In this document: one piece after another, positions 118 through 53,943 of the stretch
Layout: each line of letters opens with the position of its first letter
Position numbering within the stretch: position 1 is the stretch's first letter
Source of the DNA: Escherichia phage MIZ4
DNA: 64,000 nt
Direction: 5' to 3' (one strand)
Sequence record: OR167180
Notes under the pieces: generated by a model
What the model saw: only the letters and a program-made list of their open reading frames with translations
The model's database searches: none
What the model was told of the DNA's origin: nothing
Made by a program: the position numbers and the translations under genes

Positions 118-2886
118 ATGGCAGATTTAAACAGAATCCAGTTTAAACGCACTAGCGCAGCCGGACGTAAACCGGATGCTGGTACGATGAATCCGGGAGA
201 GTTGGCAATTAACTTAGCAGACCAATATCTGCTTACAAAAAATGATGGTGGGCAAATTGTTAATTTAAGTTGCCCACCAGTTTATGACAAGAGCGTTAAT
301 GTAAAAGGTCGTGTGGTTGCAGATGACCTTATGTGGAGTAATACCGCAAACTATTTCGATGACCCAACCGCACGAAATCTTGATAAATTTGGGGCATTTC
401 GTACTAATGATATGGATGGTCATCTAGCACTTGCTTTGCATATTCCCCATCCTAGCGGTATAAATCATGCTCGTGGGTTTGATTTTACTTATGGTTCTAA
501 CGTTGTTCCTACTGTAAAAACCTATGGTTATAACGCTGATGGTGTATTGGCATATTCATATCGCATGTATCACGAAGGTGATAAGCCTAGTCCGTCAGAA
601 TTAAATGTGTACAGCAAACAAGAAGTAGATCGGATGTTCCAGAAGACACTTGATTTTGGAATTGAGTCCGGTTGGTTTAAAATCGCTACAGTATATCTAC
701 CACAACAATATGGGCGTAGTGCTAAAATTAGATTGGTTGGTGGTAATGGTTATAATGTAGGACAGACCGGGCAAGCTAATATTATTGAATTGGTTCTGCG
801 TAGCGGGAATGGAAATCCGGTTGGTGTTGTGTTTAACGCTTATATGACCATCTGGTATATAGACCAGAAGTTTTGTGCTATTCCTACTGGTGGTGACTCT
901 TATGATATATACGGTAGCTATTCCGGTCATAGTGGATTTGTGTTGGCTGAATACCAGACTAGCCCTGATGTTAACCTGACTTTATATGATAAACCACAAT
1001 TTATAGGAAGTCAATTACCGGAAGCTGAAACAAAGTTCGATGCTTATACAATCACTTCATTTAGTAATTATCGCAACCGCGGGACATTAAATTTTGGTGC
1101 TAATTCTCAAGGCCAATATGACATTGAGCATTTGAACGAACAACCGACAAATGCTAAAAAGATGTTGCGTCGCTTCCGTAGTTGTGCTCCTGCCACTATC
1201 TGGCATGAGACAGTTGATGATAACTCATATCGTCTTGCTACTGGATACGAAGATACAAATCAGGAATTATTGCTTTCGGCTGTAACCGGGTTACATGTCA
1301 AGAGATTAACATTGGATGGCGGTGTTGGTAATGCCGGTATTGACATTCGTCGAGGACCAAACGAAGCAAGCCATTTTAATTTCATGGACTATCGCACTGG
1401 ACAAGATGTTCGTAATGGCTGGTTTGGCTTCGGTGATGGTCAGACCAAAGATTTTATTTGGTGGAACGATAACGGTCAAAACTCGATAAACCTGATTGAA
1501 GATGGTGAATTGCATATTACTGGAGGTAAAGGGCAGAAAATTGTAATGAATAGCGAAGTTGCATTATCCGAAAATGCTCGTTTGGCTGTCAAAGGCGGTA
1601 ACTATGGTTTGATTTTACGCAATGATGGTTCTGGTTTCCATATTCTTACTACCAACTTAAAAGATTCTTTTGGTAGTTGGAATAATCGCAGACCATTCAG
1701 TTATGATTTTGCGGACGGTGGATTATATTTAGGTGGTACTGAAACCGCTCGTTGTTTGCATCTTGGAATTGATGGTAGCACTCGTCTTGAAGACAACCTG
1801 TTCTTTAAAGCTGGTTCTCGTCAATCTATGGACTATATGGAACTCGTCCATTGGGGGGCAAGCAATACAGGTCGAAATAACGTTTTAAGTCTTCGTGACT
1901 CAAAAGGATTTTTAGCAGAATTTGAACGATTGGGTGATAATACCATTAAAAACACCTTCTTCGGGAAACTGAAAGTTAATCGTGGTTCTGACGCTATTAC
2001 CATTAATGCCGAAACGGGAGATTCGTCGGTATATTTGTTGGGTACGTGTGCCGATAATAACAACTGGTATATCGGTAAAGGTGGTGCGGATAATGGATTA
2101 GCGTTCTATAGTTATGCTACTAATGCTGCTGTAAACATTACAAACGGAGGGGATATCGCACTAAGTCCAAAAGGCATCGAAATGACTCATGTCAATAACG
2201 TTCGATTCTATGTTCATGGTGAACGTTGGACTGCTAGCCAATCTGGAGGTTGGAACGACCAATGGGGATTAGAAGCGCCGATATTTGTTGACCACGGCTA
2301 TGTTGGACCAGACAGTTATTATCCGATTATCAAAGGAAGAAGTTTAATCACCAATCAAGGATATACAACTGCCGTTGATCTTGGTATTCGTCGTGTCCCT
2401 AACAATTGGGGGCAAGCAATTATTCGTGTTGGATCTGCGGAGGCATCGCCAGCGGCTGGTCACCCTCAAGCTGTATTCGAGTTCCATCATGATGGTACTT
2501 TCTATTCTCCTGGTAATGGTAACTTTAACGATGTTTATATTCGTTCTGATGATCGTCTTAAGATTAATAAAGAAGAGTTAGAATATGGAGCACTTGAAAA
2601 AGTATGCCGTCTGAAAGTTTATACTTACGATAAAGTTAAGTCTATTAAAGACCGTAGTGTTATTAAACGTGAAGCTGGTATTATTGCTCAGGATCTTGAA
2701 AAAGAACTACCGGAAGCTGTATCTAAAGTTGAAGTTGATGGATCTGATGTTCTGACAATTTCTAACTCGGCAGTGAATGCTCTTTTAATTAAGGCTATTC
2801 AGGAAATGAGTGAAGAAATTAAAGAATTGAAAACTCCTTTCTTTACTAAAATTGCTCGCAAAATTAGTAAATATTTTAAATTCTAA
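118..2886 (+). CDS. 37: Long tail fiber distal subunit gp37 with C-terminal intramolecular chaperone-like (S74-type) segment
   Basis: N-terminus MADLNRIQFKRTSAAGRKPD..GELAINL matches the conserved gp37 N-terminus (T4 MATLKQIQFKRSK..GELAINL); 922 aa; C-terminal ~110 aa SDDRLK..AIQEMSEEIKELK resembles auto-cleaving chaperone domains; AAGGA SD before ATG. Confidence 0.9.
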   Translation: MADLNRIQFKRTSAAGRKPDAGTMNPGELAINLADQYLLTKNDGGQIVNLSCPPVYDKSVNVKGRVVADDLMWSNTANYFDDPTARNLDKFGAFRTNDMDGHLALALHIPHPSGINHARGFDFTYGSNVVPTVKTYGYNADGVLAYSYRMYHEGDKPSPSELNVYSKQEVDRMFQKTLDFGIESGWFKIATVYLPQQYGRSAKIRLVGGNGYNVGQTGQANIIELVLRSGNGNPVGVVFNAYMTIWYIDQKFCAIPTGGDSYDIYGSYSGHSGFVLAEYQTSPDVNLTLYDKPQFIGSQLPEAETKFDAYTITSFSNYRNRGTLNFGANSQGQYDIEHLNEQPTNAKKMLRRFRSCAPATIWHETVDDNSYRLATGYEDTNQELLLSAVTGLHVKRLTLDGGVGNAGIDIRRGPNEASHFNFMDYRTGQDVRNGWFGFGDGQTKDFIWWNDNGQNSINLIEDGELHITGGKGQKIVMNSEVALSENARLAVKGGNYGLILRNDGSGFHILTTNLKDSFGSWNNRRPFSYDFADGGLYLGGTETARCLHLGIDGSTRLEDNLFFKAGSRQSMDYMELVHWGASNTGRNNVLSLRDSKGFLAEFERLGDNTIKNTFFGKLKVNRGSDAITINAETGDSSVYLLGTCADNNNWYIGKGGADNGLAFYSYATNAAVNITNGGDIALSPKGIEMTHVNNVRFYVHGERWTASQSGGWNDQWGLEAPIFVDHGYVGPDSYYPIIKGRSLITNQGYTTAVDLGIRRVPNNWGQAIIRVGSAEASPAAGHPQAVFEFHHDGTFYSPGNGNFNDVYIRSDDRLKINKEELEYGALEKVCRLKVYTYDKVKSIKDRSVIKREAGIIAQDLEKELPEAVSKVEVDGSDVLTISNSAVNALLIKAIQEMSEEIKELKTPFFTKIARKISKYFKF

Positions 2887-2890
2887 CAAC

Positions 2891-2910
2891 AAGGGGGCAA
2901 CGCCCCCTTT
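2891..2910 (+). other. GC-rich stem-loop in the 37-38 intercistronic region
   Basis: aaggggg-caacg-ccccctt inverted repeat immediately before the gp38 SD. Confidence 0.4.
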
Positions 2911-2922
2911 GGAGTATAAATT

Positions 2923-3705
2923 ATGGCAGTAGTTGGTGTTCCTGGTTGGATTGGAAGTTCAGCCGCAAATGAAACAGGGCAACGATGGATGAGTCAAGCG
3001 GCTGGTCAACTAAGATTGGGTGTTCCTTGCTGGATGAGTCAATTTTCAGGTCGCTCGCGAGAAATTATTCATACACTTGGTGCAGACCATAACTTCAATG
3101 GTCAGTGGTTCCGTGATAGATGCTTTGAGGCAGGTAGTACACCTATAGTGTTTAATATTACAGGTGATTTAGTATCATATTCTAAAGATGTTCCTTTATT
3201 CTTCATGTACGGGGATACACCAAATGAATATGTTCAGTTGAATATACATGGCGTAACGATGTATGGTCGTGGCGGGAATGGCGGTAGCAATGGTCCTGGA
3301 TCAGCCGGGGGGCATTGTATTCAAAATGATATTGGTGGGAGGCTAAGAATTAATAATGGCGGTGCTATCGCTGGCGGCGGTGGCGGTGGCGGTGGCGGGT
3401 ATTATTCTCCTTTTTCACAAATGAGATTAACCTTTGGCGGTGGCGGTGGGCGTCCGTTTGGTGCGCCCGGCGGATCTATTGATATGCAATCAGGCGCAAC
3501 TGCTGGTACTCTTTATGCGCCCGGATCGGGGTCCGTGAACGGTATCTATAATGGCGGAAGCGGTGGTGAGGTAGGCGCCGCAGGAGGTAGATGTAATATT
3601 CGTGGTCAAGGATCTGAATATAATGGCGGCGATTCTGGATATGCTGTTATAGGGTCTTCTCCAACGTGGCAAAATCGCGGAGCTATTTACGGACCGGCTG
3701 TTTAG
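2923..3705 (+). CDS. 38: Long tail fiber tip adhesin gp38 (T2/T6-type with glycine-rich motifs)
   Basis: 260 aa; conserved N-terminal gp37-binding region [13 protein letters not shown]..; multiple poly-Gly motifs ([24 protein letters not shown]) separating short variable segments; located directly after gene 37. Confidence 0.85.
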
Positions 3706-3769
3706 ATGTAATTATAAAAAGAATTAAGGAAAACTCCCACGGAAGGGGAACTACTAAGGAGAAACGGCT

Positions 3770-4737: not shown

Positions 4738-4983
4738 TTGGCGCATAGAAGCCCCTGAATCACATTTTGACGCTGTATGATGAAAACATGTAGCGTACCA
4801 GTCATCGGCTTGTTTGTCTTCGTCAGAGAACGCATAATTTCGTTGTATACCGTTTTCTACTTTGACCAGTGCAATAGCTGTTTCTGGAAGATCAATCAAT
4901 CGGACAAAATCACCATCTTCCCACTCTACACGAGCAATATCATAACCCATCTCAAAATATACAATCGCTTGTTCTAATTTCAT
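4735..4983 (-). CDS. Hypothetical protein (82 aa)
   Basis: ORF in leftward gene array; no recognisable domain. Confidence 0.4.
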   Translation of the reverse strand: MKLEQAIVYFEMGYDIARVEWEDGDFVRLIDLPETAIALVKVENGIQRNYAFSDEDKQADDWYATCFHHTASKCDSGASMRQ

Positions 4984-5312
4984 TCTGGAAACTTCCCGTA
5001 AATGTTCTCTGCCAACATACGCGCATCGCTAATGATATCTTTCATGCTATGACCGTAGTGTTCAGTCATTGAGTTGACACAATCAACAAAGAAATTATAA
5101 CGGCGACGGTTTAAGATTTCTTCTCTGTTATAGTTTTCATACTTGACGGTCGAGTGTGCTTTCTCGATTGCCTTAATCGCTATATTGACTTCATTAATAA
5201 TGGTTTTAGCATTATATGCGCCACGACGGATCAGGATATTTGTCAATTCTCTTGCAATATCTTGCAATTCTTCATATTCATGTTCAAACATAATCAACCT
5301 CTCAAAATACAA
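4980..5312 (-). CDS. Hypothetical protein (110 aa)
   Basis: ORF with 4-nt overlap to neighbour (translational coupling pattern). Confidence 0.5.
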   Translation of the reverse strand: MYFERLIMFEHEYEELQDIARELTNILIRRGAYNAKTIINEVNIAIKAIEKAHSTVKYENYNREEILNRRRYNFFVDCVNSMTEHYGHSMKDIISDARMLAENIYGKFPE

Positions 5313-6250: not shown

Positions 6251-6538
6251 TTATTTTCGGTTGTGGTCACGATATGTTTTAAAATATCCCTCGTACCACG
6301 GTAAAACATCTGGATTTTTACCACTATACAGACCTTTAACCATCATGTCAATAAGGCCATCTGGTGTTTGATAGTTTCCAGCTTTTATAAGCTCTCTGAT
6401 TAAAATCTCTCTGTATATGTCTTTCGGATCTTCGTAATCAACTTGTATTGTGGTTGTGGTCTCATTCAATTTGGTTTCTGGAGTATCTCGCATTGCATCC
6501 CACCAATCTTTTGTGATCTTCATGTTATTGAATTGCAT
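6251..6538 (-). CDS. Hypothetical protein (95 aa)
   Basis: ORF in array. Confidence 0.45.
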   Translation of the reverse strand: MQFNNMKITKDWWDAMRDTPETKLNETTTTIQVDYEDPKDIYREILIRELIKAGNYQTPDGLIDMMVKGLYSGKNPDVLPWYEGYFKTYRDHNRK

Positions 6539-6549
6539 AATTTAACCTC

Positions 6550-7308
6550 TTACTTGCACACGTATTGATCTACATCAATTGCGCCACCGAATGTAGGATG
6601 ACGTTTTTCAAATCGAATCGTTCCGTCGTTTGGTTCGAAAACGGAGTATTCATATAGATCTTTCTTGCCAACATTCTTATAAAACCCGCCTTTAGTCATA
6701 ACGGTTTCTTGTACGTTTGCTTTGTGTACGTTGTATTCGTCAATGTATACAAAATCAACCATCTTCCCATTTTTAATGGTTACTTTAAGATCTCCTGGTT
6801 GGTTTCCATATTTTGCATACAGTGGAGCTTCTTTAATTTTGGTGGAAATTCCATCTTTCATACTCCACTCATAACGAACGGTGCATTGATAGGTAAAAGT
6901 TTCGACCTTCGGTTCTTCCACCACTTTTTCTTCCTGTTTCGGTTGTTCTTCTTCAACCTTCGCAGAAGTCTCTGAATCGCTTTCTGACGCGGTTTCTTCT
7001 TTAGGTAATACATTCATCAAGTTTTGGATTTGAGCGTTGTATACAGCCTCCAGTGGCTGAATCTGCCCGATATTGATCATTGTATCACGAACAGTTTTAT
7101 TCCAGTTGCGTTGCTCTTGTTTAAGAGACGGATCAATCTTAACAGCCTTAACATATACTTCATGAAGTTTCGAATCCAGTGCGGAGATTGACTCATTAGC
7201 ACAAATAAACTTCTCTGATTTGGTAGTGGCTTTAGCGCAATCAAAGGACGCAGCATTAGCACCGAAAGCAGTAGCGGAAAGAACGATAGCAGCGATAATG
7301 TTTTTCAT
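6550..7308 (-). CDS. Secreted protein with N-terminal DUF1311/LprI-like (lysozyme-inhibitor-like) domain
   Basis: Signal peptide MKNIIAAIVLSATAFGANA; Cys-framed motif FDCAKATTKSEKFICANESISALDSKLHEVY..QRNWNKTVRD typical of DUF1311; acidic/Lys-rich linker; own promoter upstream. Confidence 0.6.
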   Translation of the reverse strand: MKNIIAAIVLSATAFGANAASFDCAKATTKSEKFICANESISALDSKLHEVYVKAVKIDPSLKQEQRNWNKTVRDTMINIGQIQPLEAVYNAQIQNLMNVLPKEETASESDSETSAKVEEEQPKQEEKVVEEPKVETFTYQCTVRYEWSMKDGISTKIKEAPLYAKYGNQPGDLKVTIKNGKMVDFVYIDEYNVHKANVQETVMTKGGFYKNVGKKDLYEYSVFEPNDGTIRFEKRHPTFGGAIDVDQYVCK

Positions 7309-7342
7309 AATATATTCCTCAATGTTTTGTCTTGATGGGAGT

Positions 7343-7372
7343 ATCTTACTACTCCCTTAATCCGGTGTCAAC
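7343..7372 (-). promoter_or_regulatory. Sigma70-like early promoter (TTGACA-18-TAAGAT) with GGGAGTA/TACTCCC palindrome around the -10
   Basis: Minus-strand read of 7372..7343; conserved upstream AAAAAGTAGTTGACA block. Confidence 0.55.
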
Positions 7373-7591: not shown

Positions 7592-7624
7592 GTGATTCTC
7601 CTTCTTTCGTTTCGGTGTGGGAGT

Positions 7625-7653
7625 ATGTTAATACTCCCATTTCTTTACGTCAA
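7625..7653 (-). promoter_or_regulatory. Sigma70-like early promoter (TTGACG-17-TAACAT) with GGGAGTA palindrome
   Basis: Minus-strand motif; upstream AAAAACTGGTTGAC block. Confidence 0.45.
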
Positions 7654-7660
7654 CCAGTTT

Positions 7661-7903
7661 TTAGAAATTTTTCGCTTCTTCTTCGGTCATCATCACCGCG
7701 CATTCGTGCATAACTTTGAAAACCGGGTCAATCATATCGAATGCTTCGCGGGACAGTTTACGAGAAGCGATTTTGATTGCTTCAACGTCTTCTACTACAG
7801 GAACAAAAACAGTTTTCAGTTCGTCGAGCATGGCAGCTTCTTTTTCATTCAGGAAGATTCCAGCGTCGTACAATGCAACTTCGATAACATTAACTTTAAC
7901 CAT
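7661..7903 (-). CDS. Hypothetical small protein (80 aa; start moved to internal ATG with GGAGG SD)
   Basis: ORF-track start at 7966 would overlap the promoter; ATG at 7903 has AACTGGAGGAAATAAAA upstream. Confidence 0.5.
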   Translation of the reverse strand: MVKVNVIEVALYDAGIFLNEKEAAMLDELKTVFVPVVEDVEAIKIASRKLSREAFDMIDPVFKVMHECAVMMTEEEAKNF

Positions 7904-7966: not shown

Positions 7967-8167
7967 CTAGTTTTTGTTATTTTCGTGAAAATTTTTAGTC
8001 GCCTCATGTGCTTTTCGCTGGGCTTCTTGTTGTGCTTGCTGGCGTGCTGCCTCTTGTGAAGCCATAACGGAAGCATTTGCAGCAGTTACAGCCGCTACCA
8101 TCGCTGCGGTATTAGCATTTACAGTACATGCACTAGCCAGCAAAGCAATTGCAATCATTTTCTTCAT
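7967..8167 (-). CDS. Small secreted/lipoprotein-like protein (66 aa)
   Basis: N-terminal signal MKKMIAIALLASAC with lipobox-like LASAC; Ala/Gln-rich body. Confidence 0.45.
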   Translation of the reverse strand: MKKMIAIALLASACTVNANTAAMVAAVTAANASVMASQEAARQQAQQEAQRKAHEATKNFHENNKN

Positions 8168-29460: not shown

Positions 29461-30937
29461 TTAAATGTCAAACAGGTCAGTCAGAGATGCCACTTTTTCA
29501 TATTGCAGCTTTGCAGCCGTGGTAATGTTCTCCAGTGGTTTGACGAAAGTCTTATTAAACAACAAAGGCCAGTCCAACCACTTCAACACCTCTGATTCAA
29601 TTTCTGGCGGAATACGAGTACCAGACAACCAACCAAAACAGATTTCACCAAACGGATTTCGATCTTTCAGCGGTACAATCATAACCTTCTCGCCCTCACG
29701 AATCGGATCTAGTCCGAATTTTCGAGCATTACGATTATAACACAATACACTCTTAACCGCATACGGACAACCCTTAATCGGATACCCGTTTGAATCGCTG
29801 TATTTCTGTAGGTTGTTTGCAGATGATACCGCAGCAACATCAAGATAGTCAAGTTTTCTAAATTCTTGCTCAAAAATACCGTAGTATTCCTGCAATGAAT
29901 CTTCACCTTCCTGCAACATACGGCGAATACATTCTTTCAGTGATTTCTGACATGCTTTAGGGGTGGAGCTACGTTGCGTTTCCAAGCCCATGATTTTTAG
30001 CTTAGGTTCAGCAAAGCGCGTTCCTTCCATATCCCAAACATTAAGAGCATACCGCTTTTTACCAGTCCAGAATCCACCGATACCCGCAGATTTCAACGGA
30101 GGACCAGCAATTGCCTCTCGGTCCATAAACATCAAGTGCTCATAGTTGTTCATGTACTCGCATAACTCGCGATATCCCTTGTCGATAATAGGTTCCATTC
30201 GATGTTTACCGAAATTATCAAGGAAGTCAACAAGTTTTTCGGTATCGTCGAAACGGTCTTCCCCGCCAACCTTATCAATAACATTGTTAACCAGCACATA
30301 AACGGAGTCAGTATCACAATAACGAACATATGCAAAATCAGTCGTTCCGCAAAGCTCGTTTAAGTATTCGTTAATCTTACGCTCAATCCACTGAATTGCA
30401 AGCTGACCGAACAGTGTGATCGCACTAGCGTTACGGAGATCATAAAAACGGAATTTAGGATTCCCCAACGCACCATAAAGGGAGTTGATCAAAACTTTTC
30501 GAGAAAGCTGGTTTGTATTGCACAAGATCGACTCGTCTTTACATTCTTCCAGCAATTTCTCTAAGGCATCTTTACTTAATTCAGAAAGCATCGATTTAAA
30601 CGCTTCATCAAAGTCGTGACGCACTTCAACGCTATAGCTAATGGTTCCCCCATAAACATGATTTTCATCGTGTAGAATCGCTTTACATAGTTCAGCATTG
30701 CGATCACATGCCAACATCATGTTTTTGTACTGCTTACGCTGATCGAATACCTTTTTAATCTCAATCGGTACGATACCATGAATATCTTTTCGATACATCC
30801 ATCCGTTAGGCGAGCAAGAATACTCATCACTAGGACGCGGTGCAGTTTTATTGATATACTCGTGCATCGGTGCAGCATCAAAAGATCCAGCGATTGTTTC
30901 AGGCGAAATATTAACCTGACGGATGATTGATGGATAC
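29461..30937 (-). CDS. 43: DNA polymerase gp43, exon 2 (palm C-terminal part, fingers and thumb)
   Basis: Contains family-B motif B KVLINSLYGALGN and motif C YCDTDSVY; reading frame continues upstream of the annotated ATG through YPSIIRQVNISPETIAGSFDAAP to the intron 3' end. Confidence 0.85.
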
Positions 30938-32051
30938 CATTATGTTCAGCGCGGTTCGCTACTCCCGCGCCCGTTCTCTTGCGAACTGCTACATGTCACC
31001 ATGTAGATCAGACTATATCACATTCTCATAGAGAATCCTGCCATTTCGAATCGCTTGATTCTACTCTACTCGGTTCGTTACCCTTTCGATAGTCGTTGAA
31101 CAACTGCATCTTTAAGCTCATTTTGATCAAACGGTGTTCTCTTACAGTACCCGCTATAATTCTTGGCAAAAGGTTTCTTCTTACCAAAGATCTCTTTTCC
31201 TGAATTATGTGCTTCAACAAGAAAATTCACCATTTCATCAAATGTGAAACTTGTAAATTTAGCATAAGTTTCATTACGTTTTGACATTATTTTACTCATA
31301 ACTTCCGGTCGTTTAGACGCTGAATTTTCGCGCTTCTCGCCAGCATTAAATGATACTAACTCACCGGAAACATATCTAGGATCATCACAACTAACTCTAA
31401 ACCGATTTCCTTCCTTATCCTTAACGATAACAGTATTCTTTAGCTTTTCTGCCATAGAATCAAGACCTTTTCGTATAGTGTCCTCATCAGCCCCGAAATA
31501 TTTCTTTCCGCTCATATCGGTTCTGGCTTTTCCGGTCTTGTTTTCGGATATTTTCAGTCTAACTTCCTCTCGCTTGGCTGGGTTATTGTCTCCAGCGAAT
31601 GCATCTTTGGTTAACGCCTTCACTTTATCGTCATAAGATCCTCTAGAGATGAAAGCATATGCTCTCTTGCATTCACCGTTATTGAATATTAAGCACAATA
31701 ACCGATGCGCCTCGACGTGGTCTTCAAACTTAAGCCTAACAAGATTCCATTTATCTAACCGATATTCAGGGAACATTGACTTCGGGCATATATGATGCAC
31801 CTCGGAATATTCTTCACCCTGATACGGATTAGACACCAGTTTAATGTAGTCGTTTAATGCTTCCTCGTTATGTATTTCGTACTTTCTTAAAATGTCTTTC
31901 ATCTCGCGCCTCCAATGTATATCAATATTTATATACATTATAAGACACGTTAGCTCAAAATGCAACTGCTGCTGATTGTCTCCTTAGAGATTTCCCAGCA
32001 ATTAAGCAGGTTATTCGATCACTGTCACCAGTGAAAGCCCCATATCAGTTT
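30938..32051 (-). mobile_element. Group I self-splicing intron (td-like) interrupting gene 43 in motif A, carrying an HNH homing endonuclease gene
   Basis: Exon junction restores DLTSL|YPSIIRQ; intron ends ..GATATAGTCTG..CATGGTGACATG..CTGAACATAATG (resembles the T4 td intron 3' terminus as recalled); 5' part contains GACAATC-type core element; 5' exon ends in T, intron ends in G. Confidence 0.75.
31078..31902 (-). CDS. Intron-encoded HNH homing endonuclease
   Basis: HNH motif ..EVHHICPKS..EDHVEAHRLL; start set at ATG with GGAGG SD (ORF track uses upstream TTG); TATAAATA late-promoter-like element upstream inside the intron. Confidence 0.7.
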   Translation of the reverse strand: MKDILRKYEIHNEEALNDYIKLVSNPYQGEEYSEVHHICPKSMFPEYRLDKWNLVRLKFEDHVEAHRLLCLIFNNGECKRAYAFISRGSYDDKVKALTKDAFAGDNNPAKREEVRLKISENKTGKARTDMSGKKYFGADEDTIRKGLDSMAEKLKNTVIVKDKEGNRFRVSCDDPRYVSGELVSFNAGEKRENSASKRPEVMSKIMSKRNETYAKFTSFTFDEMVNFLVEAHNSGKEIFGKKKPFAKNYSGYCKRTPFDQNELKDAVVQRLSKG

Positions 32052-33253
32052 AGGGAAGTAAGGTCAAAGCTCATCATCCAACGGTAAGCATTCGGCACAG
32101 GTTCTTTTACGAATGCGCCAGGATAAGTCTGCTTAGGCTGTATCTTGTTCTCCGGTACTACTTTACCCTCAGCTTTCAGAGATCCGAAGATAATAGCATC
32201 CCATACTTTCATCGGGTTATAAACATGGTTAAATTTAATCTTTGCATAGAAACATAGGCTATACACCAGATCGATAAATCCACGCTTTTTATCAATCGCC
32301 AGCACACGGTCAACGTCGCCGATGTTATAATCTATGTAAAGTTGATGGTTATCATCACGCAATTTCTTTAACGGACCATCATAATCAACCTTACCGATTC
32401 CTGTCTCATATTCAGCAACATAATCTAACGCATATGTTGGTTGAGTCGTAAAGCTAAATTTCTTGTACAGGTCAATATAATCAAGGCTTTCGATCCCCAT
32501 GATCGTAAATGCTTCACGCTCGTTGCCAAAATCATCCTGTGAGATTCGGGATTTAATCTTACCGCACGGGCTTAGACGGTTAGCGGTTCTACTTCCGAAC
32601 TTATTACTGATACGTTTAATGATATATGGAATATCGAATGTTTCTGTGTTCCAGCCAGTGAAACCAACGGGTCGGTTTTCCTCAAAGAATCGGATGTATT
32701 CTAACAGCAATTCATCTTCTGTGTCATAGACGTTATAAACAACGCGCTCTACAATATCAGGTCGAAGAATAGACTTGCTTGCTTCCCAGATTTCACCGCT
32801 TTTTCCTTTCAAATCAAATACAAAGAAACGATCATGTACGGAATCATAATGCGTAATTGCATCGATAGGATATTTCGCTTCTTCTGGTTTAGGAAATTCC
32901 GGTGCAGTGACCTCGATATCAACCCATGCTACACGGATTTTATTTCGGTCATATCGAATCTCGCCTTTATATGTATCGGACAGATAGGAGATGATAAAAT
33001 CATCCATCCCTAGTGCCTCCTGCCCCATTTCTCCCATCTTTTTACGCCATTTGTTGGCCTCGTTCATAGATGGGAATTTTTTAGCAATGCAAGGCTTGCC
33101 ATAGATATCTTTATAATTCGTAACCATACCAGGCGCGGCATGATGAAATAAAGTTGGCGTATATTCAACGTAACGCTCTTGTTCTTGTCCAGCATCATCA
33201 ATATAACGCTCGTAGATCTTATCACCCACTCGCTCACATGACAGAAAATACAT
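32052..33253 (-). CDS. 43: DNA polymerase gp43, exon 1 (N-terminal and 3'-5' exonuclease domains to motif A)
   Basis: Block similarity to T4 gp43 N-terminus (ERYID, FPSMNEA, DIEVT, YDSVHDRF, GWN.E.FDIPY, YNIGDV, SFDLTSL); start set at ATG 33253 with GAAGGAG SD. Confidence 0.85.
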
Positions 33254-52972: not shown

Positions 52973-53003
52973 AATATAATCCTCTCGTTGTTTAGATGGG
53001 AGT

Positions 53004-53032
53004 ATCTTACTACTCCCGTTTCATCATGTCAA
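53004..53032 (-). promoter_or_regulatory. Sigma70-like early promoter (TTGACA-17-TAAGAT) with GGGAGTA/TACTCCC palindrome
   Basis: Minus-strand motif. Confidence 0.5.
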
Positions 53033-53883: not shown

Positions 53884-53914
53884 TGTTGATTCTCCTTCTT
53901 GATTAGATGGGAGT

Positions 53915-53943
53915 ATTTTACTACTCCCGTTTCATGTTGTCAA
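53915..53943 (-). promoter_or_regulatory. Sigma70-like early promoter (TTGACA-17-TAAAAT) with GGGAGTA/TACTCCC palindrome
   Basis: Minus-strand motif just downstream of gene 49. Confidence 0.5.

Follow-up and report, generated by a model that had tools for sequence, protein, structure and literature searches.

Cassette-like polymorphism of an orphan C-terminal domain in a predicted periplasmic DUF1311 protein of Krischvirus phages

What does the DUF1311 protein encoded in the early region of RB49-like phages do, and is it, as its family name would have it, an inhibitor of lysozyme? The question is raised by an open reading frame (ORF) at positions 6550..7308 on the minus strand of a 64,000-nucleotide (nt) stretch of Escherichia phage MIZ4 (sequence record OR167180), which is the window analyzed here. 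The ORF encodes 252 amino acids (aa) and contains the motif ASFDCAKATTKSEKFICANESISALDSKLHEVY...QRNWNKTVRD. An initial annotation had read the product as a secreted DUF1311/LprI-like protein expressed from its own early promoter and had suggested that it might be a periplasmic lysozyme inhibitor, analogous to the Spackle protein of phage T4. The most unusual feature of the gene was absent from that annotation: its C-terminal domain is polymorphic in the manner of an exchangeable cassette.

Escherichia phage MIZ5 (OR167181.1; Krischvirus, RB49-like Straboviridae) matched the 2-kb region around the ORF at 100% identity, and about 50 other Krischvirus genomes did so at 92 to 98%. Window coordinates equal MIZ5 record coordinates minus 64,000. 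The ORF is annotated as a hypothetical protein in MIZ5, and its ortholog in RB49 is RB49ORF260c. It sits in a hyperplastic early-gene region, with the holin gene t and the tail-fibre genes on one side and the topoisomerase gene 52, rIIB, and rIIA on the other. The 252-aa ORF is a real, conserved gene, since it is under strong purifying selection (see below). Its product is laid out as follows.

7252..7308, minus strand: Sec signal peptide, aa 1 to 19 (MKNIIAAIVLSATAFGANA), from rule-based features and the retention of AxA↓ASFDC among remote homologs, with cleavage predicted before ASFDC
7000..7251, minus strand: DUF1311/LprI-like four-helix domain, aa 20 to 103, with Cys24 and Cys36, nearly invariant
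6907..6999, minus strand: acidic disordered linker rich in E/K/P/Q/S, aa 104 to 134, differing in length among homologs
6553..6906, minus strand: C-terminal, Cys-framed (C142...C251), 8-stranded beta-barrel in a structure model, allele A of the polymorphic cassette

Sixteen aligned homologs were almost invariant over residues 1 to ~100 and variable in the barrel. The N-terminal module was shared at ≥96% aa identity by 58 cultured-phage records, the first ~100 aa being 96 to 100% identical. The barrel found in MIZ5 and RB49, allele A, was present in 44 of the 58 records. Another 12 carried alleles of the B and D types that were only ~36% identical; allele B was found in Phi1, GEC-3S, MIZ2, MIZ3, MIZ6, PHB13, E26, AV108, and ELT3, and UPWr_E1 was the carrier of allele D among the cultured phages. 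JSE had a barrel without detectable similarity. When barrels from all sources were compared all against all, at least nine discrete alleles were distinguished, falling into two classes. The class I subtypes (A, D, D', B, and B') were mutually 25 to 58% identical, and the members of class II (the JSE type, P0015/P0018, P0017, P0019, and P0020) were mutually 32 to 74% identical. Homology of class I with class II was undetectable by profile-profile comparison (hhalign probability, 2.4%); a class II protein was also predicted to be 8-stranded and framed by two cysteines, with predicted local distance difference test (pLDDT) scores of 60 to 76. Scans of IMG/VR and of metagenomes yielded only 11 and 9 further loci, respectively.

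In comparisons with UPWr_E1, Phi1, and JSE, nt identity to MIZ5 was 95 to 100% from ~7330 to ~6925 and then 30 to 55% over the barrel, so that identity to the other alleles stopped at the 3' end of the linker, at ~6925. It was regained at ~6526 in UPWr_E1 and only at ~6250 in Phi1 and JSE. Because identity returns only at ~6250 in these last two phages, the downstream gene must be dimorphic as well.

6251..6538, minus strand: 95-aa cytoplasmic ORF (ortholog of RB49ORF259c, phrog_15915), dimorphic by sequence comparison

The product of this downstream ORF, which has no signal peptide, was 95 to 99% identical to its counterparts in RB49 and UPWr_E1 and 47 to 51% identical to those in Phi1 and JSE. 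The flanking genes were 96 to 100% identical among MIZ5, RB49, Phi1, JSE, and UPWr_E1, and the variation in the barrel is therefore strictly local. One crossover at the linker/barrel junction is well supported by these alignments, as is a replaceable cassette made up of the barrel and, in part, the next gene.

The downstream ORF was itself a mosaic. Its first ~17 residues, a core reading ELI(K/R)AGNYQTP.GLIDMMV, and the last four residues (NRK) were conserved, and the segments on either side of the core separated its two types.

Selection on the three parts of the mature protein was estimated from nonsynonymous (dN) and synonymous (dS) substitution rates by the Nei-Gojobori method, the N-terminal figures including phage-versus-prophage pairs (the prophage copies are described below). 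The values, with omega as dN/dS, were as follows.

N-terminal 100 codons: dS 0.06 to 0.27, dN ≤0.026, omega 0.02 to 0.14
Linker: dS up to 0.20, dN up to 0.092, omega 0.35 to 1.5
Barrels within one allele type: dS up to 0.49, dN up to 0.066, omega 0 to 0.3 where substitutions suffice

These rates indicate that the N-terminal domain is under strong purifying selection and has not merely been homogenized recently. They likewise point to purifying selection on the barrels within one allele type and to relaxed constraint on the linker; the barrels of the D-type pair L018/L022, for example, had a dS of 0.49 and a dN of 0.04. Taken with the distribution of types, the rates give good support to the view that the barrels are discrete, old, individually functional alleles that have been swapped by recombination, as opposed to products of continuous hypermutation.

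What, then, is the barrel? An all-beta domain was modeled confidently at residues 135 to 251 (pLDDT, ~88 to 92), and it is probably closed by a C142-C251 disulfide. It had no match in Pfam, and an NCBIfam search also found no relatives. Single-sequence and profile searches against PDB sequences gave no relative, and the profile search returned no inhibitor. A HMMER scan of 1.84 billion representatives with the barrel retrieved one other member of the family plus spurious, repeat-driven matches only, and a profile search with the barrel added only fragments of family members. By these searches, the barrel is an orphan domain with no relatives beyond this protein family. Similarity to MliC-type lysozyme inhibitors was looked for in particular. 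The C-terminal domain had no match to PF09864 (MliC) at an E value of ≤10, and alignment of the barrel alignment with E. coli MliC by hhalign gave a probability of 0.9%. Motifs of the MliC/PliC type take the form SxSGAxY and YxxxTKG. In the class I barrel alignment, the invariant positions were scattered single residues, mostly structural, with no contiguous conserved loop.

The N-terminal half of the protein conformed to what had been predicted for it. The signal peptide was of type I, with a lysine at position 2, a hydrophobic core at residues 4 to 16 (mean Kyte-Doolittle value, 2.3), and a predicted cleavage site at ANA↓A; residues 1 to 20 had a pLDDT of <50 in the structure model. The AxA↓ASFDC junction was kept in homologs of 36 to 47% identity from Klebsiella, Aeromonas, and lambdoid phages. 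The signal region contained no lipobox, the +1 residue of the mature protein was not a cysteine, and no membrane anchor was seen. The sequence features thus bear out the cleavable signal peptide of the initial annotation and give good support to a Sec-exported, periplasmic mature protein of 26.6 kDa, cleaved after Ala19. The DUF1311 assignment held up as well, as PF07007 (LprI/DUF1311) matched aa 24 to 76 with a score of 26.0 bits, above the gathering threshold of 22 (E value, 1.3e-5), the match spanning profile positions 1 to 71 of 106; the homolog variants P0019, P0013, P0004, P0009, and P0020 matched likewise. The modeled N-terminal domain had the helical-bundle fold of 3gi7, a solved DUF1311 protein. 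The Cys-x(n)-Cys motif immediately following the signal peptide (ANA↓ASFDC24...C36) was kept in the homologs from Marfa, ev099, and CC2. Beyond this domain, the linker had a pLDDT of <50 at residues 104 to 132, a glutamate content of 35%, and an isoelectric point of 4.15, and the alignment of homologs showed indels and duplications in it.

A dedicated early promoter was also predicted upstream of the gene, in agreement with the initial annotation.

7337..7371, minus strand: PeSL-type early promoter and stem-loop, from a promoter scan and a pattern search
7315..7320, minus strand: Shine-Dalgarno-like GAGGAA, 6 nt 5' of the ATG, by sequence inspection

The promoter scan placed a −35 element, TTGACA, at 7371-7366 and a −10 element, TAAGAT, at 7348-7343 on the minus strand, separated by a 17-nt spacer and matching the consensus at 10 of 12 positions; this promoter, at 7371..7343, lies inside the cassette. 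The stem arms were GGGAGTA at 7356-7350 and TACTCCC at 7343-7337, also on the minus strand. The composite element TTGACA-N10-GGGAGTA-loop-TACTCCC occurred in 4 copies in the window and in none of 100 shuffles. Promoter-early stem-loop (PeSL) cassettes of RB49 and phi1 are strong sigma70-like early promoters combined with terminators and mediate modular shuffling (PMC2839356). The element at 7371..7337 fits the published description of a sigma70-like −35/−10 pair that overlaps a conserved GC-rich stem-loop and recurs in hyperplastic regions, and this copy is likely to act as an early promoter.

Further PeSL-type copies (TTGAC-N10-GGGAGTA-loop-TACTCCC) lay at 7619-7653, 52998-53032, and 53909-53943, all on the minus strand. 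The copies at 7653 and 7371 flank genes that differ among Krischvirus genomes.

The gene was found in temperate phages too. Its first 370 to 408 nt, covering the ribosome-binding site (RBS), signal peptide, DUF1311 domain, and linker, had 95 to 97% nt identity to a chromosomal gene present in 26 of 5,426 complete E. coli genomes, where RefSeq names it "lysozyme inhibitor LprI family protein." Identity between phage and prophage began at ~7330 and so included the RBS and excluded the PeSL promoter. In all four loci inspected, the gene was the outermost gene of a ~35-kb prophage integrated in hicB and was transcribed outward, and on prophage-like contigs from IMG/VR it was likewise at the end. 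The prophage copy was flanked by a promoter-like site and a terminator-like hairpin and carried the diagnostic variant LSKEET, the Krischvirus sequence being LPKEET. Three barrel types, D', B', and class II, were present in prophages. Behind the D' and B' copies, the Krischvirus downstream gene persisted only as a truncated stretch of its initial ~63 nt (MKFNSMKITKDWWDAMKANH...), and homology ended there. Since this remnant is truncated in the prophages and the corresponding gene is intact in the lytic phages, the block was evidently captured from a Krischvirus-like genome; the comparison indicates that a temperate phage took up DNA from a strictly lytic T4-like phage. The N-terminal dS between phage and prophage copies, 0.06 to 0.19, was inside the range seen among Krischviruses. 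Guanine-plus-cytosine content was uninformative about the direction of transfer, as the prophage arm is also ~40% GC. The neighbors of the gene in the phage and prophage settings were small hypothetical genes, hicAB, and phage head genes, and no effector gene or type VI secretion system (T6SS) locus was found near any phage or prophage copy examined.

The remnant of the RB49ORF259c-like gene in the hicB prophages was seen in L002 (11380-11640), L007, and L024 and contained an in-frame stop in L007.

Comparison with characterized DUF1311 proteins shows how little the family name says about function. In LprI of Mycobacterium tuberculosis (Rv1541c), DUF1311 (PF07007) is paired with a separate MliC domain (PF09864) (PMC7933661). 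The phage protein resembles LprI in being exported and in its domain order, with the helical DUF1311 domain at the N terminus and a small all-beta barrel behind it. LprI, however, is a lipoprotein, and the phage protein carries a signal peptide of type I; it also differs in its long acidic linker and in its barrel, which is polymorphic and without detectable homology to MliC. Salmonella ScwA has DUF1311 without MliC; it is periplasmic and disulfide bonded, and it leaves lysozyme sensitivity unaffected (PMC7933661). ScwA controls the levels of MltD and other hydrolases, and its overproduction lyses cells (PMC7933661). Like the phage protein it is a periplasmic DUF1311 protein, one that is disulfide stabilized, horizontally acquired, and tied to murein hydrolase homeostasis, but its DUF1311 domain is at the C terminus of a 275-aa helical protein that has no barrel. 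The initial annotation's step from DUF1311 membership to lysozyme inhibition is therefore unjustified: LprI has a separate MliC domain, ScwA has no effect on lysozyme sensitivity, and the phage barrel is not MliC by sequence, so the name "lysozyme inhibitor" does not carry a function with it. The hypothesis was nevertheless a reasonable one, grounded in part on that name. The RefSeq and UniProt designation "lysozyme inhibitor LprI family," given to the phage protein and its prophage copies, derives from DUF1311 alone and should be read with caution, as we found no result showing that DUF1311 inhibits lysozyme.

A different role is documented for other members of the family. DUF1311-only proteins provide immunity against periplasmic, cell-wall-targeting T6SS effectors (PMC12981562; PMC12135965). 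In enterohemorrhagic E. coli, the DUF1311 protein Etsi4 counteracts the toxicity that the LysM-like effector Etse4 exerts in the periplasm (PMC12981562), and WHIX T6SS effectors are flanked by DUF1311 genes (PMC12981562; PMC12135965). The phage protein shares with these immunity proteins its predicted periplasmic location and its DUF1311 domain, but they are single-domain proteins encoded beside an effector, and the phage gene has no effector neighbor and adds a linker and a barrel. As an autonomous transcription unit at the end of a prophage with an envelope-located product, the gene also recalls the morons and exclusion genes of prophage edges (lambda bor and lom, T5 llp, and cor). Unlike them, it encodes neither a lipoprotein nor an outer-membrane barrel, and it can be traced back to a T4-like phage that is strictly lytic.

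The proposed analogy with T4 Spackle (Sp, gp61.3) was examined separately. Sp, a helical protein made early and located in the periplasm, binds the gp5 lysozyme and inhibits it (PMC7677548), and it is well conserved over 178 homologs (PMC7677548); the Sp homolog of Klebsiella phage Marfa matched 730 phage records. Both Sp and the DUF1311-barrel protein would be early, Sec exported, and periplasmic, both come from a nonessential region, and the role proposed for both is protection of an already infected cell. Sp, on the other hand, is a 97-aa helical bundle with no relation to the phage protein in sequence or fold, and it is conserved where the present protein is built of allelic cassettes. The Marfa Sp homolog, used as a tblastn query against the window and RB49 segments, gave best E values of 0.13 to 0.31, all located outside ORF 6550-7308, and searches of the syntenic helicase-primase interval between genes 41 and 61 in both MIZ5 and RB49, and of ~55% of the RB49 genome, found no Sp homolog. 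In the wider family, the lambdoid phage ev099, in which the gene lies beside xis/int, and Aeromonas phages encode proteins with a signal peptide, DUF1311, a linker, and other two-Cys domains, and PHROG 4675 shares the N-terminal 133 residues only.

We propose, with somewhat less than even confidence, that the protein protects the cell from within the periplasm by binding or inhibiting a partner, in the manner of an immunity or superinfection-exclusion factor, and that the barrel is its allelic specificity domain. Early transcription from the PeSL cassette would be followed by Sec export and cleavage, placing a DUF1311-linker-barrel protein in the periplasm. There the invariant DUF1311 domain would engage an invariant partner, most plausibly a peptidoglycan-degrading or peptidoglycan-binding protein; candidates are the tail lysozyme, conserved in Krischvirus-type phages, that an incoming phage brings with it and a murein hydrolase of host or foreign origin. 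The barrel, on its tether, would bind a second, polymorphic partner, supplied by a competing phage or bacterium or by the envelope of the host, and so set the specificity of each allele. Capture by a temperate phage as an edge moron points to a benefit to a cell that merely expresses the gene, as expected of an exclusion or immunity factor, and retention at the prophage edge is the strongest circumstantial argument suggesting such a role. From the Etsi4 and WHIX precedents, a murein hydrolase or murein binder stays a plausible target for the invariant domain. Of the analogy with Spackle, the part that stands is circumstantial: the gene is carried at prophage edges, DUF1311 proteins act in T6SS immunity, and Sp was not found in the syntenic 41-61 region. 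A more pointed version of the proposal, which we regard as doubtful, would have the DUF1311 domain act as a warhead that neutralizes a conserved murein hydrolase, with the barrel, passed as a cassette among lytic T4-like phages and appropriated by a temperate one, selecting the rival to be recognized, be it a phage or a bacterial weapon. If it were true, the locus would be a polymorphic specificity system for competition between phages in the periplasm, and a lysogen could be armed with the exclusion gene of a lytic phage.

Several observations weigh against a protective role of this kind. The barrel allele did not covary with the tail lysozyme gp5, whose gene was 95.7 to 100% identical in nt sequence in all 59 Krischvirus records; a match between barrel allele and the genus's own tail lysozyme was accordingly rejected, gp5 being nearly invariant whatever the allele, and if gp5 is the target, the match would be to the invariant domain and not to the barrel. 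Nor did the allele covary with the tail fibre gp37: allele A occurs unchanged in RB49 and MIZ5, whose gp37 tips are only 9 to 37% identical, and RB49, Phi1, and JSE have tips 83 to 94% identical with barrels A, B, and II, respectively. There was no covariation with holin t, which was 98 to 100% conserved, and no linkage to the type of the downstream gene, barrel D being paired with type 1 in UPWr_E1 and with type 2 in L022 and barrels B and II sharing type 2. The PADLOC defense-system models gave no match, and a literature search found no functional study of this protein or any close homolog. The unchanged lysozyme sensitivity reported for ScwA counts on the same side. The Sp negatives, covering ~55% of RB49, are compatible with functional replacement of Sp by the DUF1311-barrel protein, but phages of the Marfa group encode both Sp and a DUF1311 homolog, so the DUF1311 family is not simply a substitute for Spackle. 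The Marfa homolog, moreover, has an unrelated two-Cys C-terminal domain and was conserved at 78 to 100% over its full length in 24 records, with no cassette behavior.

Other explanations have to be set against the same evidence. A direct lysozyme inhibitor of the LprI/MliC/PliC type, with the barrel a diverged MliC-like plug (for tail lysozyme, endolysin, or an animal c-type lysozyme) and DUF1311 an accessory, would account for the LprI-like order of DUF1311 followed by a small beta-barrel. We consider it unlikely in view of the missing PF09864 match, the hhalign result with MliC, the lack of an inhibitor among the PDB sequences, and the lack of a loop motif conserved across alleles; two unrelated barrel classes are also hard to square with one conserved active site, and gp5 is invariant. 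Discrete polymorphic alleles are typical of effector/immunity arms races, and they would make sense if the gene were an orphan immunity determinant against interbacterial weapons (T6SS amidases or muramidases, colicin M, or pesticin-like toxins), its barrel alleles matching effector families and the infected cell or lysogen surviving as a result. DUF1311 proteins are documented or predicted as T6SS immunity proteins, and carriage at a prophage edge would help a lysogen. Yet no effector gene or T6SS context accompanies any copy, a lytic cycle of 20 to 30 min leaves little time for a benefit, and the polymorphic part is the barrel and not DUF1311, the known immunity module, which together make this explanation quite improbable. 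Much the same low probability attaches to a ScwA-like modulation of host murein hydrolases (lytic transglycosylases or endopeptidases), by which the phage would condition the sacculus for development or lysis timing without blocking an incoming attack. The effects of ScwA on MltD and other hydrolases and on lysis, and the position of the gene 2.5 kb from the holin gene within the early-gene cluster, are in keeping with it; the different architecture of ScwA (a C-terminal DUF1311 and no barrel) is not. Conserved host hydrolases would leave the discrete barrel alleles unexplained, and retention in prophages as an expressed edge gene would be harder to explain.

Receptor masking in the manner of T5 Llp or Cor, in which the barrel would bind the phage's outer-membrane receptor, block superinfection, and shield progeny from debris, appears very unlikely. 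The product is an early exported protein whose alleles could follow receptor types, and a Foldseek search of BFVD found a phage "lipoprotein" with a similar barrel, but there is neither a lipobox nor a membrane anchor, and neither in the comparison of RB49 with MIZ5 nor in that of RB49, Phi1, and JSE does the allele follow the type of gp37 tip. Least credible of all, in our judgment, are a polymorphic toxin with a downstream immunity gene and an integral outer-membrane barrel of the Lom/Ail type. A constant N terminus, a variable C terminus, and a variable next gene do resemble CdiA-CT/CdiI-like loci. The pairing was rejected, however, because the downstream types are unlinked to the barrel alleles (D occurring with both), the prophage copies have no intact downstream gene (a truncated remnant or nothing), and the downstream product has no signal peptide. 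As for an outer-membrane barrel, the strands mostly span 4 to 8 residues, Lys, Asp, and Glu are abundant in the domain, and all alleles end in charged tails, none having a C-terminal aromatic beta-signal.

The bare domain assignment is not new: RB49ORF260c was already listed with a weak DUF1311 match in a 2006 table (E value, 0.2; PMC1524935), and the UniProt entry for the RB49 protein is called [quoted passage not shown] In the literature we found no description of the orphan barrel and its polymorphism, of how extremely DUF1311 is constrained, or of the lytic-to-temperate transfer. What sets the locus apart is that one strongly constrained domain is joined to discrete, anciently diverged alleles and has moved, at 95 to 97% nt identity, between a genus of strictly lytic Straboviridae and a temperate E. 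coli prophage. Few periplasmic mechanisms of phage exclusion or immunity are understood, among them T4 Sp and Imm and T5 Llp and Cor. If the protein is an exclusion or immunity factor, its barrel alleles would form a testable specificity system for competition among Krischviruses and could explain the resistance of some lysogens to these phages. Krischvirus phages are widely used in phage therapy cocktails.

Other loci in the window varied as well. Two small ORFs on the minus strand, MIZ5 CDS0104 (7661-7903) and CDS0105 (7967-8167), had no tblastn match in the RB49, Phi1, JSE, and UPWr_E1 loci and no PHROG match. CDS0105, of 66 aa, starts MKKMIAIALLASAC..., an N terminus like that of a signal peptide with a lipobox, and may be a second exported product of the hyperplastic region. 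The DNA polymerase gene of MIZ5, encoding gp43 (window 29461-33253, minus strand), is annotated as two coding sequences (record coordinates 93461-94867 and 96045-97253) with an HNH endonuclease gene between them; gene 43 of RB49 is single and intact, and the split in MIZ5 looks like a homing-endonuclease insertion. The distal tail-fibre module of MIZ5 (119-3706, plus strand) differs from those of RB49, Phi1, and JSE, with a gp37 tip 9 to 37% identical followed by a gp38-like "host specificity" gene; gene 38 of RB49 is located elsewhere, at ~45 kb. Finally, MIZ5 CDS0097 (4980-5312, minus strand) was 52 to 53% identical to its counterparts in RB49, Phi1, JSE, and UPWr_E1, with neighbors 96 to 100% identical, and appears to be another small early gene that has been replaced locally.

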